NCBI GenBank assembly: GCA_024102815.1
Contig: JAGFJJ010000068.1
Location: 7,915-71,914 of the forward strand
Length of the DNA stretch: 64,000 nt
Source of the DNA: Phycisphaerae bacterium
GTDB taxonomy: Bacteria; Planctomycetota; Phycisphaerae; UBA1845
Reading direction: 5' to 3'
The notes beneath the pieces were generated by a model. The model was not told where the DNA came from, searched no databases, and saw only the letters and a list, made by a program, of their open reading frames with translations. A program made the translations under genes and the position numbers. This document shows, piece by piece, positions 1 to 21,308 of this stretch (the stretch's first letter is position 1; the number at the start of each line of letters is the position of its first letter).

Positions 1-783
1 CGCCATGCCGCGCAGCTCGCCGTCGGGCATCTGTTGAGGAAGCCGCTGCGGTGGCAACGGTCCTATGGCCGACTTCAGGCTGAACTCAAGTCGCATGAGC
101 AGTTCAACGTTGCGATGCCAGTTGTGGTTCGGTGCCACCGGCTGGAATATGATCTGATACAACCCGACGGCGGGCGACTGAATGTTTGCCAAAGAAGTCA
201 TGATCGACCCGTAGGGCGAGGTGTTCAGTTCGTCCGGCCTCGTGAATAGATGCGAACATGGGGGCGGCGGCAGATAGTCTTCAAAAACGACGTCGTTCCG
301 CGCAGACCGGAAGAGCGCTCCAAGCGTGTTGTCGCCGTGCAAGGTGAGCTTGCATCGGTCGAACTGACCATAAAAGGCCGCCTGAAGCACGGGAAGATCC
401 TCCCGCTGGCATAGCAGCAGGATCTCGATCAGGGCCCCGTTTCCCACGATCTCGAAGCCGACACGGTGGCGCACGCGGCCAAGTTGCTTCAGGAACAGCT
501 CCGACCGCCGCCACTTGCATGACTGTTCCGGGGACACCCATACCTTCAGTCTCATCTGATCGTCCGGCCGTGTCTTTGGCGCAGCAATCCATGCCACATC
601 TGCGGGGGCACACTCAGATGGTCCCGCGGCACCCAGCGGGACGTACACCGGCTCGAGCGCCACCGGATGTGGAGCGATCTCGGGCTGGCAGCCTTTGACA
701 ACCTCTGCGGCGTAGGTATCTCGCAGCTTCGCCGCCAACATGCTTGGCCTCGGCTGCGCCACCAGCGCCTGTTCGATCGACAT
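1..783 (-). CDS. hypothetical protein, N-terminal part only (ORF runs off the left edge; absent from supplied ORF track)
   Basis: Hand translation of the minus strand from ATG 783..781 (MSIEQALVAQPRPSMLAAKLRDTYAAEVVKGCQPEIAPHPVALEPVYVPLG...FEIVGNGALIEILLLCQREDLPVLQAAFYGQFDRCKLTLHGDNTLGALF...LLMRLEFSLKSAIGPLPPQRLPQQMPDGELRGMA). It is stop-free to position 1 (~260 codons), has ordinary composition and G/C-rich third positions. In-frame TGA at 840..838; AAAGGA ~10 nt upstream of the ATG. Listed ORFs 281..613, 552..926 and 614..919 lie in the other two frames and are Arg/Pro/Trp-rich. Confidence 0.45.
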   Translation of the reverse strand, partial: MSIEQALVAQPRPSMLAAKLRDTYAAEVVKGCQPEIAPHPVALEPVYVPLGAAGPSECAPADVAWIAAPKTRPDDQMRLKVWVSPEQSCKWRRSELFLKQLGRVRHRVGFEIVGNGALIEILLLCQREDLPVLQAAFYGQFDRCKLTLHGDNTLGALFRSARNDVVFEDYLPPPPCSHLFTRPDELNTSPYGSIMTSLANIQSPAVGLYQIIFQPVAPNHNWHRNVELLMRLEFSLKSAIGPLPPQRLPQQMPDGELRGMA

Positions 784-922
784 AACGCGGGCATCCTTTC
801 TTCCATCCGGGTAGGCGGCGGACTTGGCCCCGCCGTTTCAGGGATTGATCCGGAATCGTAGGAAGGGATTCGGATGGTGCGGGTTCCGCCCGAAGTCCAG
901 TCGCCTGCCGTGGCCGCACGCG

Positions 923-1510
923 TCAACTCCGGCCGATTCGCGAGAGACGCTGCATGAGGGCCGGATGCTCGCCTAGCACCCTTGGGAAGTCAGCGCGTAG
1001 GCGGCCGGCAGAGCCTTCGGTCAATTCAGAAGGCAGCAGATGCCCGAAGCGTTCGAGGTACTCGTCCGGGGCGGCGAGCTTCTCTTTGGTTGACAGGCCA
1101 TTCCAGTAGTGCGCTATTCTCGCGGCCACCTCGTTCTCTGCGTATTGACCGGCGAGCCTCCGCGCGAGGTCCTTGAGCACGCGGTAGACGCCTCCCTCGG
1201 TACCGGTTCGGGCCATTTCAAAAGCGGCCTTCTCTCCATTGGGTCCGTATTCCTTCAAAAGTAGCGGCAAACATCGCCCCCAGTTGAATCCGAAACTTGC
1301 CGCCACCGGCTCGGGAAGACGCCACACGCGAGCCTCGACATGACCGAGGAAGTCCGTAACGCATCGGCGGAACTCTCCGACATCCGTGATTCGGCCCGCC
1401 GGGTACGAAAACGAGTTCATCGCCGCATCGACGCGCCGGTCTACTTCGTCCAGCGTCCGATCAGCAGCGATACGCTCCAAGAGCACAGCTAGTTTGCTGT
1501 CGGCCATCAT
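923..1510 (-). CDS. hypothetical protein; stand-alone copy of an unrecognised ~170-aa domain ('domain X') shared with 1519..2100 and the C-terminus of 2119..3795
   Basis: Alignable blocks: VGEFRRCVTDF / EGGVYRVLKDLARRL / YLERFGHLLPSEL. These match NFEEFCEVIGDY / NGGLRVVLDTIALAF / FIRQCGANLSSSI and HEEFLDTTCAFY / HGGMRFVLDLMTEQH / LLERIGSALPEDI in the two upstream genes. Only 8 bp separate it from the upstream stop. Confidence 0.6.
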   Translation of the reverse strand: MMADSKLAVLLERIAADRTLDEVDRRVDAAMNSFSYPAGRITDVGEFRRCVTDFLGHVEARVWRLPEPVAASFGFNWGRCLPLLLKEYGPNGEKAAFEMARTGTEGGVYRVLKDLARRLAGQYAENEVAARIAHYWNGLSTKEKLAAPDEYLERFGHLLPSELTEGSAGRLRADFPRVLGEHPALMQRLSRIGRS

Positions 1511-1518
1511 CGTTTTGA

Positions 1519-2100
1519 CTACAAGCGCCGGAAGATCGAAGAGGTCCTCTGAAGGGATTCGACGTACGAACGAATCAATTCGGAGAAGTCGTGCGCGTAC
1601 CGTTCAGGCTGATCGGCGTGAATAGACGAGGAGAGATTCGCTCCGCATTGACGGATGAACTGTCTGATGATCTCGACTTTGTCTTCCCAGATATTGGGCG
1701 CAACCTGCCGATCGAATACCCCGCGGACATATCGCTCGATGGAGTCGTCGATGAAAGCAAGGGCAATCGTGTCGAGAACGACTCGAAGACCGCCGTTGGT
1801 TCCATCCGCCGCGTCATTGTAAGCGTCCATAATAGTGGCCCGGCGGCGGCGCAGCTGACTTTCGAGAGCTTCCTTGGCACGGCCGGTGGCCTCAGACTCT
1901 GATAACCGTGCACCATCAGTGACGCAGTAGGAAAAGTGATGGTTGTAGTAGTCCCCGATGACTTCGCAGAACTCCTCGAAGTTGCGTACTGTGTTTCCGT
2001 TAAGCGCGAAACGCATGCGCGCCTCATCGTGGCGACCGCGCACGCGCCTCGCGATTTCACGCTCATCGAGCGCGGCCAGCGTAGCGTTAATCGATACCAT
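1519..2100 (-). CDS. hypothetical protein; second stand-alone copy of domain X
   Basis: 193-aa ORF with ordinary composition. ATG at 2100 is preceded by AAAGGAA at 8 nt spacing. Shares the motif blocks listed for 923..1510. The overlapping ORF 1575..2216 in another frame is Ser/Arg-rich and rejected. Confidence 0.6.
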   Translation of the reverse strand: MVSINATLAALDEREIARRVRGRHDEARMRFALNGNTVRNFEEFCEVIGDYYNHHFSYCVTDGARLSESEATGRAKEALESQLRRRRATIMDAYNDAADGTNGGLRVVLDTIALAFIDDSIERYVRGVFDRQVAPNIWEDKVEIIRQFIRQCGANLSSSIHADQPERYAHDFSELIRSYVESLQRTSSIFRRL

Positions 2101-2118
2101 CGTGGCGTTCCTTTCTGT

Positions 2119-3795
2119 CTAAAGTGTGCGAAGTAGTTCTCCGACGCGGTCCACGGACCGCACGTAAGCAAGGACAATCGGTTCGAGTTTTCGAACGAAT
2201 CGATGCGGCGGCGCACTTCGTATGTCCTCAGGCAAGGCCGAACCGATACGCTCGAGCAACGCCCTCATGAAGGCGACTCTTGCGTCCCAGTCCAGAGGGT
2301 CCAAAGCCTCTTTCAGAAGCCGCCGGACGTGAAGCGACTGTTGACTGGCCTTGTGCTGTTCGGTCATCAGGTCAAGGACGAACCGCATGCCGCCGTGGAT
2401 CCCGTACCTCGCCTCGGTCTCCGCCGCCTCCGGCCCTCCTCTGTCGGCGAATGCGTTAGCGACAAGTGCGAGTGCCCCTCCAGCCAGATCGTCGGCTCGT
2501 TCACTTGGAGGAGTGACAACATCGGCCTGCACCAGGGCGGAGTAAAAGGCGCAGGTCGTATCCAAGAACTCTTCATGCGAGGCGACGATGACATGCGGAA
2601 GAACATGTCTTGCCCTCACCGCATCAATAGGATTCCCGATCTTCTGAGCCAGCGCATCAGCGCTGATCTCTGCCAACACGACGTCGACTGCCGTCGCCGC
2701 GTCGCCCTTTCGTCGTCTCGATGAAGATGCCGTCGGTGTGTGGCGGTCGATGAGCCCCTTTCCTGCGGAGGCCTCGAAGAGGCGCCGAACGTCGCAGTCA
2801 TCTTCCTTGGTGGCGAAACGGCTCAATGCCACGCAGGTTCTGGCGGAGAGTAACGGGAACGTCACCCTGATGCGCCGTGTGGCCTGCGGCAGGGATCCGA
2901 TCAGGTGGCTCAGCTTAAGCCCGAAGTCTGTTGGGTAATGTTTGCGCTGGAGGTGGTGCCTCACCCACGTATTCAGAAGCAGCTTTGCGGGGCGGCTCTT
3001 CCCGGATCGCAGGTGCGATTCCAGTGCTCGCCAGAGTCGAAGCTCGTTGCCTTGGCCCAACAGCTGCGCTGCGCGACCCGGGATGCCCCGATCCTCCACC
3101 GACTCCAGCGGAGCGCTGAAGAACCCGCTGCGTAAGGCGCCCAGCGCGCGGGCCTCATCGGATGTTGTTTCGTTCAACAGATCGGCAACATCGTGTACCC
3201 CGATCGGGCGCATTCGAATGCACACCTCCGCAATGGAATCAGCGATGTGTTGCCTTGCGACAGGACTGAGCGACTCGAGCGACGTATCGGCGTCCGACCC
3301 AGGGTAGATAAACCGCGACACATCCGGCAGCTCCGCAGCCGCCGCCAGTTTGGCGGGTATGCTTTCGACGGAACGAATGTCCCCGTCCGGCGAGGCAATG
3401 TGCCCGGTCGTGACTACGTCCTGGCGCAGAGGCATCTTCAACCCGGCGGAGACCAGAGCGAGAAAGACCGGCGCATCCGATGAGAATCCGGACACGCTCA
3501 CGCCCAGATCCGCCGTCGAAGCCGCGCCGATGTTAACGACGGAAACCTCGAATGACCGCCTCGGCAGACACAGTAGCTGCATGATTCGATCGACAACCGG
3601 CAGGACCGTGTCGACCAGATGCTCGATCACCCGCGGTCTGAAGGCTACCGAGCCCGCAACCGTCAACCGCCTGCCCGCGGATCTCGGACGCGACTTGGCG
3701 ACCACAGCCGTCACCACGGCCCTTGCGTCCGGTCCCTTGCCGAACACGAGTGCGGCTCGCGCTCTGCCGGTTGTTTCCGGTGCGGTCTTGGTCAC
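2119..3795 (-). CDS. Lon-like (S16-type) protease domain protein with C-terminal domain X
   Basis: GVSVSGFSSDAPVFLALVSAGLKMPLRQDVVTTGHIASPDGDIRSVESIPAKLAAAAE resembles the Lon proteolytic core (GPSAG...ALVSAL...MTGEI...G.V.PIGG.KEKL.AA); candidate Ser and Lys are both present. I see no AAA+ module. The C-terminal ~190 aa is domain X. The ORF track starts at TTG 3819. I prefer GTG 3795, which forms a GTGA overlap with the stop of 3792..4496. Confidence 0.55.
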   Translation of the reverse strand: MTKTAPETTGRARAALVFGKGPDARAVVTAVVAKSRPRSAGRRLTVAGSVAFRPRVIEHLVDTVLPVVDRIMQLLCLPRRSFEVSVVNIGAASTADLGVSVSGFSSDAPVFLALVSAGLKMPLRQDVVTTGHIASPDGDIRSVESIPAKLAAAAELPDVSRFIYPGSDADTSLESLSPVARQHIADSIAEVCIRMRPIGVHDVADLLNETTSDEARALGALRSGFFSAPLESVEDRGIPGRAAQLLGQGNELRLWRALESHLRSGKSRPAKLLLNTWVRHHLQRKHYPTDFGLKLSHLIGSLPQATRRIRVTFPLLSARTCVALSRFATKEDDCDVRRLFEASAGKGLIDRHTPTASSSRRRKGDAATAVDVVLAEISADALAQKIGNPIDAVRARHVLPHVIVASHEEFLDTTCAFYSALVQADVVTPPSERADDLAGGALALVANAFADRGGPEAAETEARYGIHGGMRFVLDLMTEQHKASQQSLHVRRLLKEALDPLDWDARVAFMRALLERIGSALPEDIRSAPPHRFVRKLEPIVLAYVRSVDRVGELLRTL

Positions 3796-4496
3796 GTTCG
3801 AGTCTCCTGCCCCTTCCAAGTAATCGCAATTGAACCGGATTCGAGGCCTGGATGTACGTGAAGAATCAGGCGATTTCCGATGAGACTCGCTTGGAAGGCC
3901 GGCTCGGTGTCCGGCTCCCCGCTATCGGCCGCCATCGGGAGCGGATCTTCTGGAAACCCCACGGACCAGATGAGGTCTTCGGCCGTCAGCGTACGCTCCC
4001 ACAGGACGCGGCCGGACTCCAGGCGCAGCCGGTAGTGCCCCGGCGTGACGTCGTGAATACTGTATGCGTCGCTGTCCTGCCCCAGGGCGAAACCGGCCAT
4101 CACCACTCCATTCCGCTCCACGATGATCTCACGAATCGAGGGGCGGTCCGCTGCGGAGCGGATGCCGCCACAGAACGTCTGGTAAATCTCGTCATCTCCG
4201 GAGGGGCCTGAATCGCCCGGTGTCTGGGTGACCCCCGGCTCCCCCTCCGAACCGGTCAGGCGTCTCACGCAGGACGCCACAACATCATCCAAGACCGACG
4301 ATTCTCCGGTGAATCCCGTTCTTGAGTACTCCCGAGCGACTTCGTCCATGAAGCGACGGAACTGCCTGAAGCCTGCCGTTTGTCTGGAAGGGCCGATTCT
4401 CGTGATCCGATCAAACGCCTCTCGAAGCGCGGACTTCGGATCGGGCTGCTCGAACGCATTGACAACAATCGGGATGAAAAAGAGGCGATCGTTCAC
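3792..4496 (-). CDS. hypothetical protein
   Basis: ORF with ordinary composition. The track starts it at GTG 4505. GTG 4496 lies 8 nt after a GGAGG and forms a GTGA overlap with the stop (4495..4493) of the upstream gene. No family recognised. Confidence 0.5.
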   Translation of the reverse strand: MNDRLFFIPIVVNAFEQPDPKSALREAFDRITRIGPSRQTAGFRQFRRFMDEVAREYSRTGFTGESSVLDDVVASCVRRLTGSEGEPGVTQTPGDSGPSGDDEIYQTFCGGIRSAADRPSIREIIVERNGVVMAGFALGQDSDAYSIHDVTPGHYRLRLESGRVLWERTLTAEDLIWSVGFPEDPLPMAADSGEPDTEPAFQASLIGNRLILHVHPGLESGSIAITWKGQETRT

Positions 4497-5644
4497 GGCG
4501 AGCACCTCCGGTTATCAGCGCGCACGATCACCTCGATCTTGGGCCACACGCCGGCTTCTCTGGCCATCTCGACGAATTCAGAATGATGGGCCAGGACTCT
4601 CGCGGTATTGGCCCACAGGTCCGGGACCACGGACTTCGAATTGGTTTGCCAACGGCTGCCTGCGAAACGGCTAAACGTAGCCTTGCTGATGTCGAATGCA
4701 CTGGCCACGGCGCTGTCCCGGTAGCACCCCCGGCTCAGGTCTTCGAAGACACGCAGAATCAGTCTACGCAAGTTGTGACAGCCGATGGCACGGATTGCAT
4801 CGCGCTGGCGCGCGAGGTTGTTGGCCTTTTCGTCGGCCACCGTTTCGGCCAAGCCACGGATGCTGACCTCTCTTTCCAGCAACCAACGGAGCGGCGCGTC
4901 CTCGGCGCGGTCTGTGGGGAGTCTGTTGACCTTGCTACCGAGGGGTAGGGTCGAGGCCCAGCCGAACCGTAGATTGACGATGCTCTGAACGCGTTTGGTC
5001 TCACCTGGTCGTGCGGGATCCGGATCGTCGATGTTGGCCTCCAACCACGCCCGGCGCTGATTGCCCGGCAACCGTGAAGGGAGCCAGACATAGACCACGC
5101 CGCCGCCGACTGACCAGGCGTAGCGAGTTCTTGTCCGATCGAGACTCCGCTTTGCGTCGAGACAAGAGAGGTAGAAGTGACGCACCACAAGGCGCTGAAG
5201 GTACCTGGCAATGGCTGTCTCCTCCTGCAAATCATCCGCGGAAGGATGAGATCGTCTCCAAGCCTCGCCGTGGCGCAGCACCGTCCCGAAGTACAAGCGG
5301 CAGTCCGAACCACTCTGTTTCACCGGCGCGCCTTGCCGGGGCGCGCCTGGCAAGTTGGTGAACTTGTCGATGGTGATGTCATAACCCCGATCGGCTACGC
5401 TTGGATCATCCCCGGACAGCCTCCGGGTGGCATATTCCCGGCGAAGGGAATCCAGGAGTTTGACCAAAAGCGAGGGAGGCCCACCGCGAAATCGAAACAC
5501 AGGCCGGTATCCATGGAATTCCTCCAATGCCCGCCGATCGCCGGAATGGCAGATCAAAGCGATCAGGCAAAGGAGCGAAGATGCACGAAGGGGGCGGTGA
5601 TCGTCCGCGCGGGAATGCCGTAGGTGAGCCGCGAGCGACGTCAT
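4493..5644 (-). CDS. hypothetical protein with C-terminal sigma-70 region-4-like HTH
   Basis: ATG 5644..5642 overlaps the kinase stop TGA 5643..5641 (ATGA). The C-terminal LRRLILRVFEDLSRGCYRDSAVASAFDISKATFSRFAG looks like a region-4/LuxR-type HTH. The rest is unrecognised. Confidence 0.5.
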   Translation of the reverse strand: MTSLAAHLRHSRADDHRPLRASSLLCLIALICHSGDRRALEEFHGYRPVFRFRGGPPSLLVKLLDSLRREYATRRLSGDDPSVADRGYDITIDKFTNLPGAPRQGAPVKQSGSDCRLYFGTVLRHGEAWRRSHPSADDLQEETAIARYLQRLVVRHFYLSCLDAKRSLDRTRTRYAWSVGGGVVYVWLPSRLPGNQRRAWLEANIDDPDPARPGETKRVQSIVNLRFGWASTLPLGSKVNRLPTDRAEDAPLRWLLEREVSIRGLAETVADEKANNLARQRDAIRAIGCHNLRRLILRVFEDLSRGCYRDSAVASAFDISKATFSRFAGSRWQTNSKSVVPDLWANTARVLAHHSEFVEMAREAGVWPKIEVIVRADNRRCSP

Positions 5645-7275
5645 GACCGCTCTCCAACTGACCTGGACCGCAGCGCGGCCGTCCATTGGGCGACGCGTCG
5701 GTCCACCCGCCGAGCGAGAGCGAGAGCACGGTCCCGGTCACCCGCGGCGACAGCCTGGTCGATCCGCACACGTTCCCGTCGAATGAACTCCACGACCTTC
5801 GCCGCCTGTCGCCGGGCCGGCATAACAGCCGTGCCTCCGGGGGAGAGCCGCTCCGCCTCTTCGAAACAGGACAGCGCCTTTTCCCAATTGCCGTCTTCCG
5901 CGTTTACCAGTCCCTGCTGCATCGCATCTCGATACAGTCGGGCCCGGAATGTCACCTGGACCTGGATCAGCCGTGCGGAGGGATGCTCAGGATACAGTCT
6001 GGCGGCTTCCGCGAGCATTCCCAGAAGCTCCTCAAGTCCCGACTCGTTCATTCCGTCCTTAATAGTGCGGTACAAACACTCGGCCTGATGAAAACGATCT
6101 TCGATCGCTTCCTGCATGTGTTTGGCGTCCGTGTTGTTTGGGCATTCCTCAAGAATGTGATGACACAGCCTCAGCGCATCGTCGAAGCGACCGTGCTCCA
6201 CCATGCGGCATGCCTGGTCCCACGATTCGTCTTGCGGATCGGGGTTGGCGACCGGTCGATCGGCCTGCGGGCGGCATGTGGGAGATTCAAGGTCGTCGAG
6301 GATGTCCGCTACACGCACGTAGCGCTGAGCGCTGTGTTTCGCCAGACAGCGGTTGATGACGTGCGCGACGTTTCTCGCTACGTCCGGCAGCGGTGGCGCT
6401 GCGACCTGAGTATGCAGATAACGGAGCCGTTCGAAGTTCCCTCCGAATGGAGGCCTGCCCTTCGGGTTGAGGATTTCGTATAGTACGACACCGAGACTGT
6501 AAACGTCGGAGCGGGCGTCGAGATCATCCGGATGCGGCGCGTTGAAGTGCTCCGGACTCATGTAGGCGGGCGTACCGGGGCAAGGATTGTCGTCCGCGCT
6601 GAACGACCCGTTTTCCGGATTGGGCGCCAGGCTCTCGAGGTACCGGGACAGACTGAAGTCCGCCACTTTCACGACGCCACGAACAAGAAGGAAGTTCTCC
6701 GGCTTCAGGTCGAGGTGCACAACGCCGGCGCCGTGGATGGCGGCGACGCCGCGGCAAATCTCCTTGAACATCTCAATGCCGCGGGTCTGGCGAGCCTCGA
6801 TATCAGACCGTCGGTTGAGCAACCACTGCCGCAGATCACCGCCGTCCGCATGCTCCATGGAAAGGACCATCAACATCGTGCCATGCCACGGCACCACGTG
6901 AAGATCGTACACTTTGAGAACGTGCCTGTGATCTTGAACGCGATCGTAAAGATCCTGTTCTTGCTGAAGCTCCCGTGCGGTGTGTTCCGAACCGGAGGGA
7001 CCTACGTCCACGACCTTGATCGCCACATCATGCGCACGCGTGGTATCACGGGCTGCGTAGACCTCGCCGATGCTCCCGCTGCCGATGTGCCTGTGGATGC
7101 AAAACCGCCCGAGCTGCGTGTTGCGCGATAGTGAAGGGGCACGATGGGCGTGTCCGTGCGCCATAGAGAGAAACGGGCCATCTCCCCGAACAGACTGCGA
7201 CCCGTTACACGATCCGGGACCCCAATCGAATGGTCTGCCGATTCTCGGAGTCAGACTCAATATGTTCTGCGACAT
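5641..7275 (-). CDS. Hanks-type Ser/Thr protein kinase with C-terminal TPR-like helical region
   Basis: Gly-loop IGSGSIGEVY; VAIK; catalytic HLDLKPENFLL; VADFSLSR (DFS in place of DFG); GTPAYMSPE. The C-terminal half is helical and repeat-like. Confidence 0.9.
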   Translation of the reverse strand: MSQNILSLTPRIGRPFDWGPGSCNGSQSVRGDGPFLSMAHGHAHRAPSLSRNTQLGRFCIHRHIGSGSIGEVYAARDTTRAHDVAIKVVDVGPSGSEHTARELQQEQDLYDRVQDHRHVLKVYDLHVVPWHGTMLMVLSMEHADGGDLRQWLLNRRSDIEARQTRGIEMFKEICRGVAAIHGAGVVHLDLKPENFLLVRGVVKVADFSLSRYLESLAPNPENGSFSADDNPCPGTPAYMSPEHFNAPHPDDLDARSDVYSLGVVLYEILNPKGRPPFGGNFERLRYLHTQVAAPPLPDVARNVAHVINRCLAKHSAQRYVRVADILDDLESPTCRPQADRPVANPDPQDESWDQACRMVEHGRFDDALRLCHHILEECPNNTDAKHMQEAIEDRFHQAECLYRTIKDGMNESGLEELLGMLAEAARLYPEHPSARLIQVQVTFRARLYRDAMQQGLVNAEDGNWEKALSCFEEAERLSPGGTAVMPARRQAAKVVEFIRRERVRIDQAVAAGDRDRALALARRVDRRVAQWTAALRSRSVGERS

Positions 7276-7287
7276 CGCGGACCCTCC

Positions 7288-9276
7288 TCAGATGGGTCGA
7301 AGCGCGAGCGCTTCGGTGCGCAGACGCTGCAAGGTGTGGTTGATGACTCGGTTCAAGCCACGCAGCCATGAATTGCTCGTTTCGTGCCGATAAAGTCCGT
7401 CGAACGCCTCAAGCAGCGTCCGGTTATGTTCCGCAGGCGTATGGCCGGGATCACCTGTTCCGGCATCGAAGAGGACCGAGCGGACAAGTACATTTTGCAG
7501 CCCATCGTGAAAGGCCTCGATGGTCGAACAGAGCCTCGGCAGGCGAGAACGCGAATCACCTCCAAACACAACCGTTTCGGTCTCGCGTACTCTCCCATCT
7601 GTTATCCACCAGAGGGCCTGAACCCTGGCCGGCGACAGGCCCATCCGTCCGTCCTCGGCGCGGATCTCTTCAAACTTGGCGGCGATCTTCTCGGCGGTCA
7701 GGGCGGCCTCGGGGCACGGCACAGGCTTGGATCGCTCCAGCAGCCACAGACCTTGGAACTTCATGTCGAGTACCGCTGCCGCCTGAATCCCGAAAGCGAG
7801 TCTCTCCTCCGTGGGCGCCGAGGTTGCGATGACGCACCTATTCTCCTTGAGCAGCTTCGCGATCCTCGCCAGGCGCTCGAACGTCTCCGAATCGTCAGGG
7901 GCGCGCTGGAGGTTCCGGAGGCAAGCGCTGTGGGCCTCAGCATACAGGCCGATCTGTTCGAGGATCTCCGCGTAGCGAAGTATGGACCGGGTGGAGCGCG
8001 GATCACCAGCCGGCAGCAACTGTATGAGGCGATGGCGCGCCTTGAGTTCACCCAAAGAGTCGTTTTTCGCAGCAGCCTCGTGAGCGCGCAGGCCCGAGAT
8101 GACCGCCTCGAAGCCACGTTTTTCAAGCTTGTGGTAGCTTTCCTCCAGTCCTTCGAAGCGTCTCGAATGGATGCCCTGCTGAATCCGATAGCACAATGCC
8201 CGCGCTTCGCTGACCTCTCGCTCTCGGCGCGCTAAATGACGCACCAGAGCAGGCGGGCCGACGACAGTGCGGTAGTGGTTTCCCGGGAGACGACAGTCCG
8301 GCTGAAGTCGCTCCGTGCCAGTCGCCCAGATGGCCGCCGTGCCGTCTTCGTGGATAAGCAGTAGCTTCAACGGCCCGGTATCAGGCACAACCGCCGCGGA
8401 CACAACGCCGCACGGGCCCTTCGCCTCTGCGACCCGAGTAACGGTGCCGTGACCAGCGCTGTTCGAAGACCACGTCCAGGTTCTTAGCAGGCCGTCTTCT
8501 CGTCCGATCGTGCAGAGCCGGCCGTCCTCGGTGATCGCAACGCTGAAGTTGCCGCCATGAGCCGGGCACACGCTGATCCGCAAGTCGCCAAGGTCCACGA
8601 GGACCAGCTCTCCGTCCGCGGAGGCGTACACGGCGGAGTTGCAGACGGGCCAGTGCTGCAATTGAACCAGGCCAAGCGTGACGGGCGGAACCGGGGCGTC
8701 GACGTTGTCTGCCAACTCCCCGGAGGGGAGGCGCAGCAGCAGCACCTTGCCTGAGGACGAAAGTCCCAGCAGTCTGTGGTCAGGGAGAGCCAGAAGGGAG
8801 CAGACCTTACCCTCGCGACGTTCCAAGCAGCGCGGGCGGTCAAACGACGAGTGTCCCGGGGGCCAGAGCAGGCATCGACCGGCCATATCACTGCTGGCCA
8901 GCAATCCACCGTCCAGTAGACAGACCGACAGCACCGGCGCACCCTGAACGAGCGACAACCGCTCAAGCCGGTCCGCGCGGGCCTGCTGCGCAGTTTCTCG
9001 GAGGATATCGATCGTGCCGTGACGCGATCCTGCCGCGACAACACCGCCCCGTTCGTCCACGTCGATTGCGTAGATGCTATGGCCCGCAGGCAGGCTAAGC
9101 AGCCTCGTGGAGTCTTTCCCGGCGTGGCACAACATCATCAGCCCGGGACTGGAACCTCCGGTCCCAAGGAGCAAACTGGATGTCACACTTTGGCCGTTCT
9201 TGTTCACCATCAGGGACTGCATCCAATTCCACGCAACATAACGACGGTGTGGCAATTCACATTCGCAGACGGTCAA
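7288..9276 (-). CDS. WD40/beta-propeller-like repeat protein with helical (TPR-like) C-terminal half
   Basis: Repeated blade-like strings: GSRHGTIDIL, SSDMAGRCLLW, SSSGKVLLL, ASADGELVLVD, GREDGLLRTWTW, IHEDGTAAIWA. Start uncertain (9276 or ATG 9222). Stops 12 bp before the kinase start. Confidence 0.7.
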   Translation of the reverse strand: MTVCECELPHRRYVAWNWMQSLMVNKNGQSVTSSLLLGTGGSSPGLMMLCHAGKDSTRLLSLPAGHSIYAIDVDERGGVVAAGSRHGTIDILRETAQQARADRLERLSLVQGAPVLSVCLLDGGLLASSDMAGRCLLWPPGHSSFDRPRCLERREGKVCSLLALPDHRLLGLSSSGKVLLLRLPSGELADNVDAPVPPVTLGLVQLQHWPVCNSAVYASADGELVLVDLGDLRISVCPAHGGNFSVAITEDGRLCTIGREDGLLRTWTWSSNSAGHGTVTRVAEAKGPCGVVSAAVVPDTGPLKLLLIHEDGTAAIWATGTERLQPDCRLPGNHYRTVVGPPALVRHLARREREVSEARALCYRIQQGIHSRRFEGLEESYHKLEKRGFEAVISGLRAHEAAAKNDSLGELKARHRLIQLLPAGDPRSTRSILRYAEILEQIGLYAEAHSACLRNLQRAPDDSETFERLARIAKLLKENRCVIATSAPTEERLAFGIQAAAVLDMKFQGLWLLERSKPVPCPEAALTAEKIAAKFEEIRAEDGRMGLSPARVQALWWITDGRVRETETVVFGGDSRSRLPRLCSTIEAFHDGLQNVLVRSVLFDAGTGDPGHTPAEHNRTLLEAFDGLYRHETSNSWLRGLNRVINHTLQRLRTEALALRPI

Positions 9277-9838
9277 TCTCGAAGAGGCCGTCCAGCTCCG
9301 TCTGTCCGGAAGGCAACAGGCAATGCGGAGGCGCCGTCACGGGACTCGACGTAAGCAGCGGGTCACACGGTTGTTGAACCGGCGGTCTCGGCAGGCTGCT
9401 CGGCAACGCGGGGGCGACCGCATCTTGCAGCGCATTTTCGGCAGACGCGATTTTCTGCTCGATTTGCGAGTGCATGGCAACGTGTTCCCGGTGTTCGGCA
9501 TTCAGCTGGTCCTCGGCCTCGGAATAGTGGTCTTCAGCTTGCCGGCCATGGAGCCGGGCGCAGTGGTCCGCGATGAGCTCACGGTTGCGGAAAAGCCGAT
9601 CGATCTCGGATTCCGAGGCCGCCAGATACTCGTGCAGTTCCTTGTCCAGCGTTTGCAGGCGGGCCCTCTCTGCGTTCAGCTCACCGATATACGGCCATTC
9701 CCAGACACCATCGAAGCCGAGCCTCGGTGGAACACCGGCGATCCTCTTCAGTTCCTCAATACACTCGTCAACTCTGGTTAGCAGCTGGGTGGCGTTTTCG
9801 AGGCTGTACGATTCCTGAGCGGGAGGTGACGGCGGCAT
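9257..9838 (-). CDS. hypothetical coiled-coil protein
   Basis: I use the internal ATG 9838 (MPPSPPAQESYSLENATQLL...), which sits 1 nt after the stop of 9840..10358. The 102 codons upstream in the track ORF (to 10144) are Arg/Lys/Ser-rich and overlap the better acidic ORF. Confidence 0.5.
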   Translation of the reverse strand: MPPSPPAQESYSLENATQLLTRVDECIEELKRIAGVPPRLGFDGVWEWPYIGELNAERARLQTLDKELHEYLAASESEIDRLFRNRELIADHCARLHGRQAEDHYSEAEDQLNAEHREHVAMHSQIEQKIASAENALQDAVAPALPSSLPRPPVQQPCDPLLTSSPVTAPPHCLLPSGQTELDGLFEIDRLRM

Positions 9839-9839
9839 G

Positions 9840-10358
9840 CTACGATCTCCCCGCCGCTTGAATTCGCGCGCGTTGTTCCTCGTGAAGGCGCTCGCTCTCC
9901 TGGCGGGCCTCTTGGGCTTCACGCTCATGCTCATCGAGGAGTTCGATGTCACGCTGCGTTTCCATCTTGGCCTTTTCGAGTTCGCTTTTCGCCTCGTCGC
10001 TGTGCAGGCGATTCTCGCCGTCCGCGATCTTGCCCATATCCGATGAGGCCGCGTCGGATCGCTCGTGAAGCTCCTTCTCGAACTCTTCGCCCTCGTTCTG
10101 GACCTGTTCCAGCGTTTCGCCGTCTTCCTCGAACTCCCGGACACTCGTCTCCTGTGCCGCTTCGACCGCCTGTTCGACGGCCTCCGCCGCGTCGGACGTC
10201 CCGGTCAAGTCGAGACTCTCCAGAGTCTCCCGCTCCGTCTCGACGTCATCCGCGTGTTTCTCCAGGGCATCCGTCTTCTCATCGAATTCCGTCTTTCGGT
10301 CATCGACCGTTCTGGTCAGGTCGCTCCGCGTGGGAGCATCCGTTCGTCGCTTGCGCAT
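9840..10358 (-). CDS. highly acidic coiled-coil protein
   Basis: 172 aa, roughly 30% Asp+Glu by my count, with heptad-like charged repeats. GGAG lies 8 nt upstream of ATG 10358. Confidence 0.6.
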   Translation of the reverse strand: MRKRRTDAPTRSDLTRTVDDRKTEFDEKTDALEKHADDVETERETLESLDLTGTSDAAEAVEQAVEAAQETSVREFEEDGETLEQVQNEGEEFEKELHERSDAASSDMGKIADGENRLHSDEAKSELEKAKMETQRDIELLDEHEREAQEARQESERLHEEQRARIQAAGRS

Positions 10359-10451
10359 GATTGAATCTCCTTTGACTCCGTGCTCACTGACCTAATCGCA
10401 AATGCCAGGCAGCTTGGCGACGGAAAAAACCGACGACCACGACAATCCAGT

Positions 10452-13232: not shown

Positions 13233-14719
13233 ATCGCAGCCGCCTGCTCGGCAAACTCCGCCGCGTCGTCGCCGCTGACCTCCACGCCGTCTCTTGCAGC
13301 CGTCTCGCCGACGTAGTCTCCGCAGCACGGACATCCGGTGTTACGCGGCAGGTCGACGCCGTACCAACGAAGGACATGCATGCCATCGACGCTGCACTCC
13401 AGCGGTTCGAGGTTCTCGAAGTCCGTATCCTTTTCTCGGCGATTCAACCAGATGTACCATGGGGCCGAGAGATCCTCATCCAGTGACTTCAGCGTTGTCT
13501 CCTTGCCCTTCAGCAATTCCTGGATGACGAGTTTGACGACCATGAGGCTGATCGGGGCGATGTCCGTCGAGAGCCCCGGCTCGACGGCAACCGGACGATC
13601 CGAGTACGCTACCTCATCTGCTTGCTCCTGGTTGGATACCCGCTCATACGCCGCCTGCTCGGGTAGGGCCCCCAGAAAGCACTGGTAACAGGGAGACTCA
13701 TGCGGCCGCACCCTGAGTACTTGCCCGCCGTGCGCACGCCGAAAGGCCGCCGCGATGATGCACGGCGTGTTCTCCTCCACGCAGAGCTTGTTTAGGATCA
13801 CTCGGCTTTCGCGGTTGTCCGTAGCGATGACGACGACGTCCGCCCTGCGGATGATGCGACGAAGAAACTCCGTGTTGTTCCAGGAGACTTTACAATCCCA
13901 GGCACGCACCTCGGCGAACGGGTTCTTCTCCAGGATCATCTCCCGCATCACGTCGGTCTTGAGCCGTCCCACGTCGGAGATACCCGCCATGTGCCGGACC
14001 ACATTACCGGTTTCAAGCCGATCGTGATCCATGATGTCGAAGTGCATGACTCCCTGTTTCGGCAGCTCCCAGGCAATGGGAGACCCGCCCGATCCCAGGC
14101 CGACGACGAAGACTGTTGCATCCGCGAGTGCGTCAGTCTCCAGCAGACCCTTGGCACGCGAGAACAGCTCTTCACGCACCGGAATCACGCAGACCGTCGC
14201 TGCCTTCCAGCCGTCGCCCGTCCGAACGAAGCCGAGGATCTCGTGGGGAGACTGCCCCATCGCTTCACCGGACGGTGACGTCCGCGGAGAGACAATGACC
14301 CTCACGCGATCGGTCGGCGCGCCGATCTCGGTGACGGCGATCCCCTGCCCGGGCGGGGCCCACTGGATCGTTGCAGGAAGCGCTCTGGACAGGTCTGTCT
14401 TCGCAATCCCGTTGTAGACCTTGCCGCCGTCCCTGCATTGGAGTGCCAAACGCCTGGGCTCGCGCGTGCTAAGCACGGTGTGAATCTGCTCACCGGGCAG
14501 TACGATGAACGGGACGCGCTCCTCCGGATCCGCAAACACGTCCATGTCCTCCGGCTTCACGGACAGGTACCTGTCCGGGTCCTTGCCATCCGTGACTTCC
14601 GCGTCGTCCACTCTTACGAGCCTGCGCAGGTCCTTACTGTAAACGATCCGCCCGCCGGCGGTGTTGCCGGTACGTACATCGTCCATGGCCTCACGAATCC
14701 TAGCTTCCTCAGTTTGCAT
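13229..14719 (-). CDS. E1-like ThiF/MoeB-family adenylyltransferase with ~190-aa N-terminal extension
   Basis: VFVVGLGSGGSPIAWEL (GxGxxG); DHDRLETGNVVRH; IATDNRESR; two Cys pairs (SPCYQCF and GCPCCGDY). Overlaps the E2 stop by 11 bp. Confidence 0.85.
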   Translation of the reverse strand: MQTEEARIREAMDDVRTGNTAGGRIVYSKDLRRLVRVDDAEVTDGKDPDRYLSVKPEDMDVFADPEERVPFIVLPGEQIHTVLSTREPRRLALQCRDGGKVYNGIAKTDLSRALPATIQWAPPGQGIAVTEIGAPTDRVRVIVSPRTSPSGEAMGQSPHEILGFVRTGDGWKAATVCVIPVREELFSRAKGLLETDALADATVFVVGLGSGGSPIAWELPKQGVMHFDIMDHDRLETGNVVRHMAGISDVGRLKTDVMREMILEKNPFAEVRAWDCKVSWNNTEFLRRIIRRADVVVIATDNRESRVILNKLCVEENTPCIIAAAFRRAHGGQVLRVRPHESPCYQCFLGALPEQAAYERVSNQEQADEVAYSDRPVAVEPGLSTDIAPISLMVVKLVIQELLKGKETTLKSLDEDLSAPWYIWLNRREKDTDFENLEPLECSVDGMHVLRWYGVDLPRNTGCPCCGDYVGETAARDGVEVSGDDAAEFAEQAAAI

Positions 14720-15176
14720 TTTGGATTCTCTCCTTTTGTTTATCTATGAACTTCGCAATGCTCTCACCCGTACGCAAGTGCGCCGCATACGCTTCAATCC
14801 AGAGCATTCCACGCATAAAGATCGCAATCATGGTCATGCGTGCATCCCAACCGCTCATAAAGCAGATCGCCACACAACCACTGGGGTGTTTGCTAGCCGT
14901 GTGAAACTCGTGGGATGCACCAAGCGAGTTGATCGTGGAGAGGTTTCCATGCTTCCAGAGAACTTGCGGACTCGCCACGATGAGAAAGGGCTTCTCATGC
15001 GGATAGTTGGGAGTGAGCAGCAACCTCAGGCGGTACACCTCAGATCCCGCCGTTGGCGTAACGGGTCCTTCAACATACGTGTCGCGGGCTGGGTTGAAGA
15101 ACTCAAACTGAGGCATCGTACGCTGGAGCTGCTTTTTCTCTAACGCCAAGCGGTAGCGTTCATCTGGTGACCACAT
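14709..15176 (-). CDS. E2/UBC-like protein (prokaryotic E2 family)
   Basis: Internal ATG 15176 (MWSPDERYRLALEKKQL...) with AAGGA 8 nt upstream. LLLTPNYPHEKPFLIVASPQVLWKHGN resembles the UBC YPxxPP flap plus an HPN-like HGN motif. Candidate catalytic Cys in SGCVAICFMSGWD. Confidence 0.65.
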   Translation of the reverse strand: MWSPDERYRLALEKKQLQRTMPQFEFFNPARDTYVEGPVTPTAGSEVYRLRLLLTPNYPHEKPFLIVASPQVLWKHGNLSTINSLGASHEFHTASKHPSGCVAICFMSGWDARMTMIAIFMRGMLWIEAYAAHLRTGESIAKFIDKQKERIQNAN

Positions 15177-15192
15177 GCGTGTGTTCCTTCGT

Positions 15193-16353
15193 TTACAGGT
15201 ACCTTCCAAACCACTCGAGCATGCGTCCTCGACCCGGTTGCCCGTCACGTCCGCCGGTTGCTCGGGAAGCCTCGTCGCGACCGTCCTGCTTGGGCAGATC
15301 TGTCGTACACTTGGTTTTGCCGTGATGGACAAGGGACTCGGCCCGAGCGTAGATCGTGCTGATGACCGTTTGTGGTCCATCGGGAAGGACAGCGCACGAA
15401 ATGTCGCGGACGTCACACTGCTCCGGCGTTGTGAGACCGACTGAGCGGACTTCGTGGGGCGGTGTCGCGTCGTAGGCGATGAGGATTCGCCAAGAAGATA
15501 GAGACAAGCTGAGGATGATGACTTCGCCCTCTATGTGCAAACTCAGATCCTCGAGGATTGACTCGGGCAGCGCGGCAACCTGCTGGGCGATATGCTCAGG
15601 AATATCCGTAGTTGGTTCGTCCCTCTCGACGTGGGGATCGAACAGTAGGCGGTTCATGGGGAACGCGCGATTCTCCACGCCTGGGCCCGCACCGTTAAGT
15701 AGGTCATTGAGGCTCATCGTCAGCCCGACGGGACTGATTCCTGGGATCGTCTTGATCGGACATCGCTCGTACTCGGCTGCCTGGGGATCGGTGTGATGAA
15801 AGGAGTTGATCCTTACGATGGTGTTTTCTTGATCAGGGCGAGGACGTGCTCTCGATGCGAGCAACTGCGCGCCGTTGAACGCGCGCTGCATGCACGTCGA
15901 GATCAAGCCGGCGGAGCGGTCCACTCTTGGGGCGCCGCGTTCGTGCGTGACGATGATCTCGACCAAGCGCGAAAGGTCGTTTCGTTGGCTCAGCGATTGT
16001 ATCGTCCGCTCGTCGCCGGAGCTAAGATGATCCAATCCTAGTGAGTAATGGCTGTGCCAGCGACCGACGAGCTGGATCCCGTATGTCTCCTGGAGGAACC
16101 GGGTGACTCTTTTGAAGTGGTCGACATCTTGAGCGAAGTGCGTTGCCTCGTGAACAGCGTTCGGTCCTGGACTCGAGGCAAACAGCACCACGGCTCGCCC
16201 GGCATGTGTCCATAACCCATAGAGATACCCCCCAGTCTCAAGATCTGTCCAGGCCGCGGATGTGGCTGCAATGCACTGAAGCACCGACTGCCAAGTGGTG
16301 AAGTATCGATCGTGCTCGGTCTGTTTCGCGCGTTTCTTGCGAGGTCGTGGCAT
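15193..16353 (-). CDS. JAB/JAMM (MPN+) metallopeptidase with ~230-aa unrecognised C-terminal region
   Basis: ETGGYLYG (Glu) followed by GRWHSHYSLGLDHLSSGD, which is the HxH-x7-S-xxD JAMM motif. First gene of the minus-strand run. Confidence 0.8.
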   Translation of the reverse strand: MPRPRKKRAKQTEHDRYFTTWQSVLQCIAATSAAWTDLETGGYLYGLWTHAGRAVVLFASSPGPNAVHEATHFAQDVDHFKRVTRFLQETYGIQLVGRWHSHYSLGLDHLSSGDERTIQSLSQRNDLSRLVEIIVTHERGAPRVDRSAGLISTCMQRAFNGAQLLASRARPRPDQENTIVRINSFHHTDPQAAEYERCPIKTIPGISPVGLTMSLNDLLNGAGPGVENRAFPMNRLLFDPHVERDEPTTDIPEHIAQQVAALPESILEDLSLHIEGEVIILSLSLSSWRILIAYDATPPHEVRSVGLTTPEQCDVRDISCAVLPDGPQTVISTIYARAESLVHHGKTKCTTDLPKQDGRDEASRATGGRDGQPGRGRMLEWFGRYL

Positions 16354-16632
16354 ACCTTGCCCCTTTCGTGGCGACCCTGGATCGGATCGGCGACCCGGAC
16401 CGCGCTTTCGTAGCGGACGACGCTGTCCTGGCCCTGAGCCTCCCTGTCACCCCACCAATCGCAATTGACGCCGGGGTTTGCGCCAAAAAAATCGGTGGAA
16501 TTGCCGCGCGCCGGTGAGCTTGGCCCCAGGCAGGACGTGACGGGTCGTGAAACGAAACGGCCTCGGCCACCGCTGAGTGGGTGGAAGGGCGTACGGATCA
16601 GTGAGGCACGCAACGGTACGGGACACCAAAGG

Positions 16633-20031: not shown

Positions 20032-20492
20032 CTACATCGTCCCCCGGATCGAGCACAACCCGCGATGATCAGCACAATCCCGCGGGCTCATGCCAGCTAC
20101 CATGGCTCGCCGACCGGTCAAGCCAATAGCTCCGATCCACTAACGTCCACCAAACCGACGGGGGCCTCGTACGCGCCGGCTCGGCGTGGATATCCTTGCT
20201 GCCGTCGAAGCACGCTCGGATCGTTGTGAATCGTCCCGAAAGACCCTGCCGCGACGTCACAAAGGATAGCGTATCGGAACCTCGGCGCACCTCAACCTTG
20301 AAGGGCTTCTGTGCCGTAGCGGCGCCGGCGGCCCGCCTCCGTGGTGGCGACTTCTGTCGCGGCTGGGCCGCTATTGGTGCACGCAAAGCCCTACCCGGTC
20401 TAGGGGCAGTCGGATCGCGGGATTTGGACTTGCATCCGCGTTGGGAACAGGCTCCCCGCTCCTAATCCGGCCGTCCCGACTCAGTTCGAATG

Positions 20493-21152: not shown

Positions 21153-21308
21153 ACGCCATTAGCCCCCGCGACAGCGCCGACGTCAAGGGCACGGAGCGTC
21201 AGCGGTCCGCGCGCTTCTCGCTTGAAGGCGGACCGACGAACTCACGCGAAACGCCGGGGATCCGTTCACGATCCGATTGACCCGGCTTGGTTCGAATTCG
21301 GCGGCGAA

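Follow-up and report, generated by a model that had tools for sequence, protein, structure and literature searches.

In a 64,000-nucleotide stretch of a Phycisphaerae genome (contig JAGFJJ010000068.1, positions 7,915 to 71,914; hereafter the window), we analyzed an operon that joins genes for a JAB/JAMM peptidase, an E2-like protein and an E1-like enzyme to a HerA-type ATPase, a WD40 protein, a Hanks-type kinase and a Lon-type protease. The 14 genes of this operon are the visible part of a block of roughly 20; the block is real and strongly conserved and, as far as our searches show, undescribed. With E1/E2/JAB, HerA, kinase, WD40 and Lon together, the operon represents the fullest form of a modular system. 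What stays constant in this system resembles the machinery of a mobile element and centers on a new domain, domain X. The reading that we favor, at about even odds, is that the operon forms the backbone of a hitherto undescribed integrative-element family, or at least an integral part inherited along with it, and is not a free-standing host defense. The case for a backbone rests on several lines of evidence: the operon continues past the window into a TrwB-like ATPase, a further domain-X protein, an AEP primase, an HTH_17 protein and an integrase; the order of the core is kept, a minimal variant exists, the core enzymes are of mobile-element type, and distant genes of the window covary with the block; and protein identities are correlated among families, the block is spread over several phyla, two copies occur in one metagenome-assembled genome (MAG), and one relative carries a ribonucleotide reductase.

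The operon has 13 complete genes and a partial one, every one of them encoded on the minus strand between 16353 and position 1 (Table 1; numbered g1 to g14 in the direction of transcription), which agrees with the co-directionality claimed in an earlier sequence-only reading of the same stretch. The close junctions listed there proved correct in every case on reading the sequence: ATGA joins E1 to HerA (13232/13229) and the kinase to g9 (5644/5641), GTGA occurs at 4496/4493 and again at 3795/3792, the E2 and E1 genes overlap by 11 bp, and 1 nt separates g5 from g6 (9840/9838). Gaps are small, as claimed; that between g1 and g2 is 16 bp, and the widest, of 139 bp, separates g13 from the gene that starts with the ATG at 783. 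Most starts are preceded by purine-rich, GGAG/AGGA-like ribosome-binding motifs, and terminator-like hairpins are not enriched inside the block (nine found vs. 13.5 expected). The block is confirmed as a tightly coupled, syntenically conserved multi-gene unit. Profile searches uphold the assignments of the JAB, E2, E1, HerA-type ATPase, Hanks kinase, Lon-type protease and domain-X proteins. The expectation of "at least one more gene" at the left edge was right in that a further gene is present; it encodes an 830-aa TrwB/VirB4-like ATPase (g14) and is not one of the short open reading frames (ORFs) of the window.

With g9 as the seed, scans recovered 10 loci from GTDB genomes and 80 from metagenomes, and look-ups seeded with the TrwB-like ATPase brought further loci; the non-redundant total is 94, and g9 is present in 94 non-redundant loci. 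Each presence count given here is limited to the loci with sufficient sequence. Individual loci carry L numbers, L001 being the locus on the source contig of the window, which covers the sequence beyond its left edge. All locus sets were seeded with genes of the system, so the frequency with which modules occur alone cannot be measured from them. A search for synteny elsewhere had been proposed as a check, and the same gene order recurs at 30–60% protein identity in dozens of independent contigs. The GTDB-genome loci are MAGs of Planctomycetota/Phycisphaerae, Thermodesulfobacteriota, and Verrucomicrobiota, and the block is spread over several phyla, with a locus GC content of 0.40–0.61. In one Thermodesulfobacteriota MAG, two contigs hold two diverged copies (L010 and L011; g9 42% and 39% identical to that of the window), which reflects either multi-copy carriage or a binning artefact.

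The near-invariant core has the order g9-g10-LonX-X-(X)-TrwB-like-X, usually followed by the primase. Its stand-alone domain-X paralogs number two to four. Lon-X follows g9 and g10 in 37 of 38 loci, the TrwB-like ATPase is found in 19 of 20, and the AEP primase in 12 of 14. Upstream, the picture is more variable: HerA lies within 10 kb in 12 of 15 loci (eight co-directional and four divergent), HerA/WD40/kinase are present in about 80% of informative loci, and E1, representing JAB-E2-E1, in seven of 14, all of the co-directional type. The three distinct contexts obtained with HerA as the seed (40–52% identity) all hold the same gene set, including the core. A minimal variant (L099–L101) consists of Replic_Relax, g9, g10, Lon-X, X, the TrwB-like ATPase, X, and X, with a gene for a Cdc6-like protein nearby, and is indexed in 34 collection blocks; in its locus of ~22 kb we detected no HerA, WD40, kinase, primase or E1/E2/JAB gene. 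The architecture is thus nested, with the core contained in core plus primase, this in the arrangement with HerA/coiled-coil/WD40/kinase, and this in turn in the arrangement with JAB-E2-E1. Optional modules are placed in front of the core: HerA/acidic coiled-coil/WD40/kinase and, in a subset, JAB-E2-E1 as well. The sequence-only reading had taken the JAB-E2-E1 trio as the defining feature, which its presence in half of the 14 loci with enough upstream sequence contradicts. HerA, WD40 and kinase are dispensable as well; the minimal variant, recovered from many samples, lacks all three.

Pairwise identities are positively correlated between all families. Within the upper module, the correlations range from 0.74 to 0.89 (E1–HerA, 0.88; HerA–WD40, 0.89; WD40–kinase, 0.82), and within the core module of g10, g11, the TrwB-like ATPase and the primase from 0.72 to 0.82 (g10–TrwB, Spearman 0.82; Lon–TrwB, 0.73; Lon–AEP, 0.72). 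Between the modules the correlation is moderate (HerA–TrwB, 0.68).

Table 1. Features of the window; numbers after family names are E-values, and dashes in the strand column denote the minus strand.
Feature	Position	Strand	Remarks
g1, JAB/JAMM peptidase	15193..16353	-	Domain at residues about 18-139
g2, E2-like protein, 155 aa	14709..15176	-	PADLOC E2 models 2.3e-5 to 4e-3
g3, E1-like ThiF-family adenylating enzyme, 496 aa	13229..14719	-	Pfam ThiF 1.4e-35
g4, HerA/FtsK-superfamily ATPase, 926 aa	10452..13232	-	P-loop from about residue 400; N-terminal half uncharacterized
g5, very acidic helical protein, 172 aa	9840..10358	-	31% D+E, pI 4.5
g6, helical/coiled-coil protein, 193 aa	9257..9838	-	Weak PADLOC coiled-coil-type matches only (0.025-0.06)
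g7, WD40 protein, 644 aa	7288..9222	-	N-terminal beta-propeller, helical C-terminal half
g8, Hanks-type Ser/Thr kinase with C-terminal tetratricopeptide repeats (TPR)	5641..7275	-	Pkinase 7e-40, TPR_2 2.4e-7
g9, basic core protein, 383 aa	4493..5644	-	Conserved C-terminal helix-turn-helix (HTH)-like motif (GISKATFSRFAGSRW)
g10, core protein, 234 aa	3792..4496	-	Fast-evolving; always follows g9
g11, Lon-X	2119..3795	-	Lon-type (S16) protease at residues about 70-175, middle region, domain X at 369-558
g12, stand-alone domain X, 193 aa	1519..2100	-	Most conserved protein of the system, median identity 62%
g13, second stand-alone domain X, 195 aa	923..1510	-	Against g12: hhalign (family) 4e-39, BLASTP 1e-3
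g14, TrwB/VirB4-like ATPase, 830 aa	1..783	-	First 261 codons in window; full gene in L001
Replic_Relax protein	16465..17538	+	Pfam Replic_Relax 2.2e-20; divergent from operon, exact start uncertain
Conserved neighbor, 262 aa	18257..19045	-	Pairs with 329-aa ORF at 19042-20031
PRiA4_ORF3 protein (plasmid- or ICE-type)	20493-21152
Type I restriction-modification	23824-30094		Complete set: HsdR (1166 aa, N-terminal DUF4145), HsdM, HsdS; then 437-aa unknown protein
pAgo-SIR2 defense pair	32714-35743		Piwi-domain Argonaute (639 aa), then SIR2_2 protein (367 aa)
DUF7380/DUF4209 protein	35768-37618		After pAgo-SIR2 pair
Two-transmembrane gene	42777-43100	-
VWA/CobT-like protein (627 aa)	44089-47222		Adjoins MoxR-type AAA_5 ATPase (383 aa); position covers both
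DUF2958 (plasmid- or ICE-type)	50237-51025
MarR-like gene	52009-52647
Second, unrelated HerA/TraG-type ATPase, 705 aa	54602-58257		DUF87, HerA_C, P-loop_TraG; convergent with 362-aa protein; position covers both
Cdc6/Orc1-like AAA+ protein, 415 aa	58948..60195	+	Cdc6_C 9e-19

The first two core proteins resemble nothing in the libraries. g9 has no match in Pfam, PADLOC, NCBIfam, PHROG or a PDB profile search; its earlier description as an HTH protein is weak, with a conserved HTH-like motif to go by and no family. g10 likewise gave no match in any scanned library nor, by profile, in the PDB. g11 (Lon-X) has no Pfam match, and its Lon-type domain was recognized by comparing a family profile of 27 orthologs with the PDB, where Lon protease domains, 1xhk among them (6.8e-8), were matched. 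The Ser-Lys dyad, Ser105 with Lys149, is invariant in the 27 sequences. No AAA+ unfoldase module was detected in the polypeptide. The C-terminal domain X of g11 matches g12 (BLASTP, 4e-14).

Domain X had been described as a shared domain, and it is real; it occurs four times and not three, namely at the C terminus of Lon-X, as the stand-alone proteins g12 and g13, and in a 212-aa protein encoded past the left edge. Among the first three, the hhalign matches range from 1e-33 to 1e-54. There are 778 homologs of g12, nearly all of exactly 193 aa and all unnamed. g13 usually ends in ...GR(S), and in L002 it is relocated beside Replic_Relax. An exhaustive profile search for relatives of domain X collected 1702 representative proteins; the best 150 matches are mostly stand-alone proteins of ~193 aa or Lon-X fusions of ~560 aa. 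The AlphaFold (AF2) model of g12 is all-alpha with ten helices (pLDDT 91). Fold searches against the PDB and the viral BFVD found no match (best TM-score about 0.2), and the sequence profile retrieved nothing from the PDB. On this model, domain X would be a confidently predicted domain without a structural relative.

The gene truncated by the left edge, g14, matches TrwB_AAD_bind (1.3e-7) and DUF87 (2.6e-5), and it shares with g4 a P-loop core of the HerA/FtsK superfamily. In its AF2 model (pLDDT 83.5), the C-terminal half superposes on TrwB with a TM-score of 0.64–0.67 (root mean square deviation 4.5–5 Å, ~425 residues), and the whole model matches VirB4/TrwK (E = 1e-13). The ATPase domain of DndH reaches a TM-score of 0.63, and defense HerAs are nearly as good as TrwB; the best PADLOC match is mad8 (9e-11). 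A conserved N-terminal domain of 390 aa precedes the ATPase half, and the C-terminal half matches an 824-aa PHROG family of unknown function (1e-26). g14 and its orthologs end in an acidic-aromatic tail, ...(Y/F)(D/E)(D/E)(L/F/Y) (L001 13150-13220), which follows a disordered linker (pLDDT < 50 from residue 798). From its sequence this tail looks like a docking peptide, and it recalls the tail with which TraD docks on the relaxosome protein TraM.

Past g14, the source contig continues with the 212-aa domain-X protein, the AEP primase, two small ORFs, an HTH_17 excisionase-like gene, and a tyrosine integrase, and IS110 and IS66 transposase genes lie further out than the integrase. The primase falls in Pfam AEP-TOTE (3.7e-30) and also matches primases and PrimPols. 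The site-specific recombinase and excisionase that mark integrative elements are therefore present just past the window, as Phage_integrase and HTH_17 genes. In seven distinct loci (the source contig, L016, L025, L034, L075, L097, and L098), the gene after the primase region is HTH_17, a tyrosine integrase, or both are present. In L097 the integrase directly abuts the host genes lon-clpX-clpP-tig, which places the block at the very end of an insertion. In L098, primase and integrase are separated by a TSCPD-domain ribonucleotide reductase (14230-16518).

On the other side of the operon, a Replic_Relax gene and a defense island (type I restriction-modification [RM], prokaryotic Argonaute [pAgo] with SIR2, and others) adjoin it, as had been reported. 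The Replic_Relax gene matches the PHROG "replication initiation by nicking" (1e-9) and stands beside the system in the window and in L002, L098, L099, and L015 (45–50% identity). It is part of the conserved block on these comparisons, and a nicking role is predicted. A divergent intergenic stretch of 111 bp (16354-16464) separates it from the operon. The Replic_Relax domain is listed beside MOBT relaxase calls in a table of a mobilome survey (PMC11104534). The 262-aa neighbor that follows it, for which the library scans gave no family match, is 46% identical to a 261-aa gene at the same relative position beyond Replic_Relax in L002.

Relatives of genes much further to the right also recur beside the system in other loci. 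The Cdc6/Orc1-like protein of the window is 82% identical to one in L099, a locus of the minimal variant, where it is encoded 3 kb upstream of Replic_Relax; this is far above the 34–51% of the system proteins. The genes that follow it, two small g17-like genes and a 209-aa gene, are also common to both (window 58948-61582, Cdc6-like gene included). The Cdc6-like protein probably belongs to the same element as the operon. This synteny raised the idea that the window's right end might hold the system once more, which we rejected. The MarR-like gene matches a gene adjoining the kinase in L006, and the two-transmembrane gene, 38 kb from the operon, is 44% identical to the L006 gene directly upstream of g9 (9102-9407), a small two-transmembrane protein in that place being a feature of divergent-type loci. 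Since these genes, 25–45 kb from the operon (at 42.8, 52, and 59–61.5 kb), recur beside the system elsewhere, they point to a single element of at least 67 kb, of which the adjacent defense island looks like cargo or an insert. The genes between the operon and these distant genes comprise type I RM, pAgo and SIR2, DUF4209, DUF2130, an AAA_15/21 ATPase, VWA with MoxR, and the second HerA. The 362-aa partner of this second HerA has about five hydrophobic segments, and the 705-aa ATPase and its partner could be a minimal DNA-transfer pair of the same element.

The module directly in front of the core begins with g4, which matches mad8 (7e-14) and HerA (1.7e-8) in PADLOC, CedD in NCBIfam (5e-14), and, by profile, the PDB entry 8wiv (1e-4). 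Its 105 full-length homologs include some with DUF87, FtsK_SpoIIIE and HerA_C matches. The acidic g5, without a family match in Pfam or PADLOC, has orthologs in at least 12 loci. In the E1/E2/JAB-less loci of the divergent type (L006 12897-15433, and the equivalents in L065 and L089), HerA is followed by tandem pairs of a 155-aa and a ~170-aa protein, the ~170-aa copies being distant relatives of g5; the tandem duplication suggests a diversifying expansion. g6 is fast-evolving, with orthologs at 26–63% identity in six loci. The WD40 assignment of g7 is borne out by its orthologs in L006 and L097, which have many strong beta-propeller matches in Pfam; the window protein by itself is weak (E = 0.0036). 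g7 is the most divergent family, with a median pairwise identity of 28%, and is a probable sensor or scaffold.

The kinase, g8, has strong PADLOC matches to mad6 (9.5e-54) and PD-T4-6 (2e-51), which are limited to the kinase domain; an automated annotation could well assign either label, and we rejected both for this reason. Its orthologs keep the catalytic K, D, and DFx, except in two lineages with a degenerate kinase, represented by L007 and L023, where the catalytic Lys and the DFG Asp are substituted (VTVQV, SNIG). Judging from these substitutions, some lineages appear to keep the kinase as a pseudokinase. In L006 the kinase is 1018 aa long, with an N-terminal zinc ribbon, and MarR-like, CpXC, and FHA-domain genes stand alongside (20454-22618). 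FHA domains read phosphothreonine, so this last neighbor is consistent with real kinase signaling.

The outermost module is that of JAB, E2 and E1. In g1, only the N-terminal ~140 of 386 aa match JAB (PADLOC, 1.8e-14; JAB part of NCBIfam cap2_3, 2e-11), with the JAMM motif E..HxH..SxxD kept in three orthologs; the C-terminal extension of about 250 aa has no Pfam or PDB sequence match. The Cys motif of g2, H.FH...C(V/I)xIC, is kept in eight orthologs. In the PDB, g3 matches ThiF (1e-17), UBA2 of the SUMO-E1 (8e-13) and Cap2 (6e-9), with MccB also among its nearest solved relatives, and GxGSxGS and two CxxC motifs are kept across orthologs, behind a beta-rich N-terminal extension of about 190 aa. 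In a Thermodesulfobacteriota lineage, two independent assemblies (L004 6896-8338 and L005 2652-4094) have the E1 gene as a 57-aa and a 416-aa ORF, which could be programmed or could be a genuine split or frameshift. The 57-aa ORF between E2 and E1 was rejected as a candidate ubiquitin-like protein, as it aligns to E1 residues 1–62. No separate ubiquitin-like gene was found in the window, and no family of the block has the conserved C-terminal Gly that would make it a candidate E1 substrate. It is possible that a ubiquitin-like domain is fused within the N terminus of E1 or the C terminus of JAB.

In agreement with the claim that the system is undescribed, we found no match to a named multi-gene system in PADLOC-DB 2023, Pfam, NCBIfam 2026 or PHROGs, where the products matched at the level of domains only, and literature searches on this gene combination found no description of it. 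The likenesses to named systems are partial. Type II CBASS has in common with the block a JAB, an E2-like protein and a ThiF-type E1 with catalytic motifs, which have their best PADLOC matches there, at modest scores. In contrast to CBASS, the 21 gene products of the block scanned with PADLOC and Pfam include no detectable CD-NTase or cyclic-nucleotide-activated effector, and CBASS-type effectors (SAVED, CARF, patatin, TIR, endonuclease) gave no matches; Cap2 of CBASS is an E2-E1 fusion that, with the JAB peptidase Cap3, primes a CD-NTase whose C terminus is conjugated, whereas E2 and E1 are separate genes here and the trio is optional; and the N-terminal 190 aa of this E1 and the C-terminal 250-aa domain of this JAB, both of unknown nature, set them apart. 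The Bil (BilABCD) and Bub operons also have separate E1, E2 and JAB genes within one operon; they differ in their ubiquitin-like gene, not found here, and in that the present trio sits in a block of ~20 genes. The PRTRC (ParB-related, ThiF-related cassette) of plasmids and integrative and conjugative elements (ICEs) has an E1-like gene with JAB- and E2-like partners, and is the closest precedent for E1/E2/JAB as a gene set of mobile elements. The E1 studied here, however, scores 21.6 bits on PRTRC_ThiF (TIGR03736), the cut-off of which is 144.75, and neither a ParB-related nor any other PRTRC protein was detected.

Integrative mobilizable elements (IMEs), ICEs and the actinomycete ICEs (AICEs) resemble the block and its surroundings, which have an integrase, an HTH_17 Xis, a putatively nicking Replic_Relax protein, a TrwB-fold ATPase, a primase, and variable defense cargo; IMEs and ICEs combine an integrase and Xis with a relaxase and a type IV coupling protein, and the AICE set consists of an integrase, a Rep/prim-pol and an FtsK-like translocase. 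The differences are that the ATPase here is soluble, that the block has no membrane genes of a type IV secretion system (T4SS), and that kinase, WD40, HerA, and E1-E2-JAB are added. At least five core genes (g9, g10, Lon-X, and the X paralogs) have no counterpart in known IME, ICE or AICE elements. By analogy, the invariant part seems most like an IME, with its recombinase, predicted nicking protein, motor of coupling-protein fold, and primase. A T4SS or other secretion machine was rejected as an explanation of the block, in which we found no transmembrane segments.

Among defense systems, MADS (methylation-associated defense system, a set of eight genes) provides the best PADLOC matches of the kinase (mad6) and of both ATPases (mad8), but these are matches of generic kinase and P-loop domains, and the other six components, the methyltransferase and the nuclease were not detected; we rejected the block as MADS because it has only such generic domains in common. 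SIR2-HerA and DUF4297-HerA likewise have a divergent HerA-type hexameric ATPase, which serves as scaffold or motor, with weak profile or fold matches (8wiv, 8j4u, 8zit), but the operon has no SIR2 or DUF4297 partner, and its ATPases, of 830–926 aa, have novel N-terminal halves. CalpL (type III CRISPR) and BrxL (BREX) are precedents for a Lon-type Ser-Lys protease domain that works in a multi-gene system without an AAA+ unfoldase of its own. Unlike them, the block has no SAVED/CARF sensor and no BREX genes, and its protease is fused to domain X; g11 has a weak CARF_LON match (0.029) and none that is significant at the family level. The most economical role for Lon-X would be that of a switch that acts by cleaving a substrate. 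TOTE conflict systems are named for TPR, OB, TBP, and Effector (bioRxiv 10.1101/2025.09.15.676423), and the primase falls in the corresponding AEP family. The block as TOTE was rejected, the AEP domain being all that is common; TBP and S1/CSD-OB were not detected in the block with Pfam. On these sequence comparisons, the block is none of type II CBASS, Bil/Bub, MADS, PRTRC, TOTE and SIR2-/DUF4297-HerA.

If the operon is the backbone of an element, its parts can be placed in a working scheme. The integrase and Xis would excise the element, and Replic_Relax, the primase and the Cdc6/Orc1-like protein would nick and replicate it. The soluble TrwB/VirB4-like hexameric motor would handle the DNA, recruited to the nucleoprotein complex by its acidic-aromatic tail via domain-X adaptors. 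Lon-X might reach the domain-X paralogs by homotypic contacts and cleave them as a switch, and kinase, WD40, and HerA, with E1-E2-JAB where present, may tie this switch to a signal from the cell or from an invader by phosphorylation and reversible conjugation. The defense genes to the right, type I RM and pAgo-SIR2 among them, would then be cargo of the same element.

Several observations weigh against such a backbone. Hydrophobic segments that would fit a transmembrane helix are absent from all proteins of the block. g14, too, is without one and so lacks the membrane anchor that real coupling proteins have at the N terminus, and with no T4SS channel genes in the operon, the route of transfer is missing. 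The adjoining integrases differ in type and orientation and are mostly not homologous by tblastn, a heterogeneity that may mean that the block hops between elements as cargo, and where downstream sequence is available, roughly every second locus lacks an integrase within 2 kb. We found no att repeat of 16 bp or longer between the integrase-distal sequence and the window, no tRNA in a tRNA search, no capsid-like or known partition genes, and no instance of the system in PLSDB plasmids, GenBank phages or IMG/VR. In addition, kinase, WD40, Lon-like protease, HerA and E1/E2/JAB are hallmark defense domains, the primase is closest to the TOTE-conflict AEP family of Pfam, and evolution is fastest in the WD40 and g10 families and in the duplicated acidic proteins, a pattern expected of arms-race sensors.

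These last points would suit a stand-alone multi-gene system against phages or plasmids that is merely often carried beside integrases. This reading, which extends that of the sequence-only analysis to the whole block, is the main rival; we hold it to be plausible but less likely. The WD40 and TPR proteins would here sense an invader, the machinery would be primed or switched on by the kinase (and by E1-E2-JAB where present), two hexameric motors, HerA-like and TrwB-like, would load onto foreign DNA, and the nuclease-like Replic_Relax, the AEP, and Lon-X would act as effectors. It has in its favor that the accessory domains have precedents (JAB/E2/E1 models of CBASS, mad6, PD-T4-6, HerA models, PrimPol), that the AEP falls in Pfam AEP-TOTE, that structures similar to the g14 model also include defense HerAs and, for its ATPase domain, the restriction protein DndH (TM-score 0.63), that putative sensor families evolve fast and acidic proteins are duplicated in tandem, that neighboring integrases are heterogeneous, as for cargo, and that the block lies among RM, pAgo-SIR2, and other defense genes. 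Yet it is the replication- and mobilization-type genes that are near-invariant and the sensor and signaling genes that are dispensable; the block stands at the very end of the inserted segment, beside host housekeeping genes, in L097; genes tens of kilobases away covary with it; there is no clear toxic effector besides the nuclease-like protein and the protease; and PADLOC gave no system-level match. The accessory conflict function proposed in the sequence-only reading agrees with the parts, which are classic conflict-system domains, and not with the near-invariant core of mobile-element-type genes and unknown proteins, and an accessory defense system in an island is no better supported than the backbone of a mobile element that carries that island.

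The integrase, Xis, and primase, with ribonucleotide reductase in L098, also form a phage- or satellite-like set, and fusions of proteases to structural proteins and FtsK/HerA packaging ATPases are known in viruses. The core could accordingly belong to a virus-like or particle-forming temperate element in which domain X is structural, Lon-X a maturation protease, the ATPases package DNA, and the primase, the Cdc6-like protein, and Replic_Relax replicate the genome. Domain X is unusually conserved, with three to four paralogs and no known fold, and the C-terminal half of g14 matches the 824-aa PHROG family (1e-26), as such an element might show. We nevertheless find it improbable: searches of IMG/VR, GenBank phages and BFVD structures came back without a match, none of the domain-X proteins is basic, the block lacks genes for a portal, tail, lysis or membrane proteins, and packaging ATPases fall far short of the 830 and 926 aa of the two ATPases. 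That unrelated small operons (E1/E2/JAB, HerA-kinase, and Lon with its unknowns) lie together by chance is scarcely credible, for all that the modules are separable, JAB-E2-E1 and HerA-kinase being absent from some loci and HerA-kinase sometimes on the opposite strand. The same order at 30–60% identity in dozens of contigs of several phyla, the start/stop overlaps that span module borders (E1/HerA and kinase/g9), the divergence correlated between modules, and the core in all three HerA-seeded contexts argue against it.

A broader possibility, which we put forward tentatively, is that the core, often with Replic_Relax beside it, is an unrecognized machine built on a new all-alpha adaptor fold. 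It would serve an integrative element to process and move its DNA free of a canonical T4SS or capsid, or else a new DNA-targeting immunity, and eukaryote-like signaling layers would have been added to it stepwise: Hanks kinase, WD40, and HerA first, and E1-E2-JAB later. As part of that same tentative proposal, E1-E2-JAB would represent a third mode of E1/E2 action beside CBASS and Bil/Bub, in which a component of the system is conjugated without a dedicated ubiquitin-like protein or a CD-NTase.

The case carries a caution, that defense-type domains beside a defense island need not mean a defense system. If the block is a defense system after all, it would be among the largest and most modular yet seen. 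In either case, the natural series from the core, through the addition of kinase/WD40/HerA, to that of E1-E2-JAB can reveal the role of E1-E2-JAB where there is no CD-NTase or separate ubiquitin-like gene. If the operon is the backbone of an element, it would define a widespread integrative family, with hundreds of protein clusters, in Planctomycetota, Desulfobacterota, and Verrucomicrobiota, phyla for which, to our knowledge, almost no mobile elements have been characterized. Such a family would ferry defense islands (RM, pAgo-SIR2), and it would use a new protein fold, a Lon-type protease, and a motor that resembles coupling proteins but is soluble.

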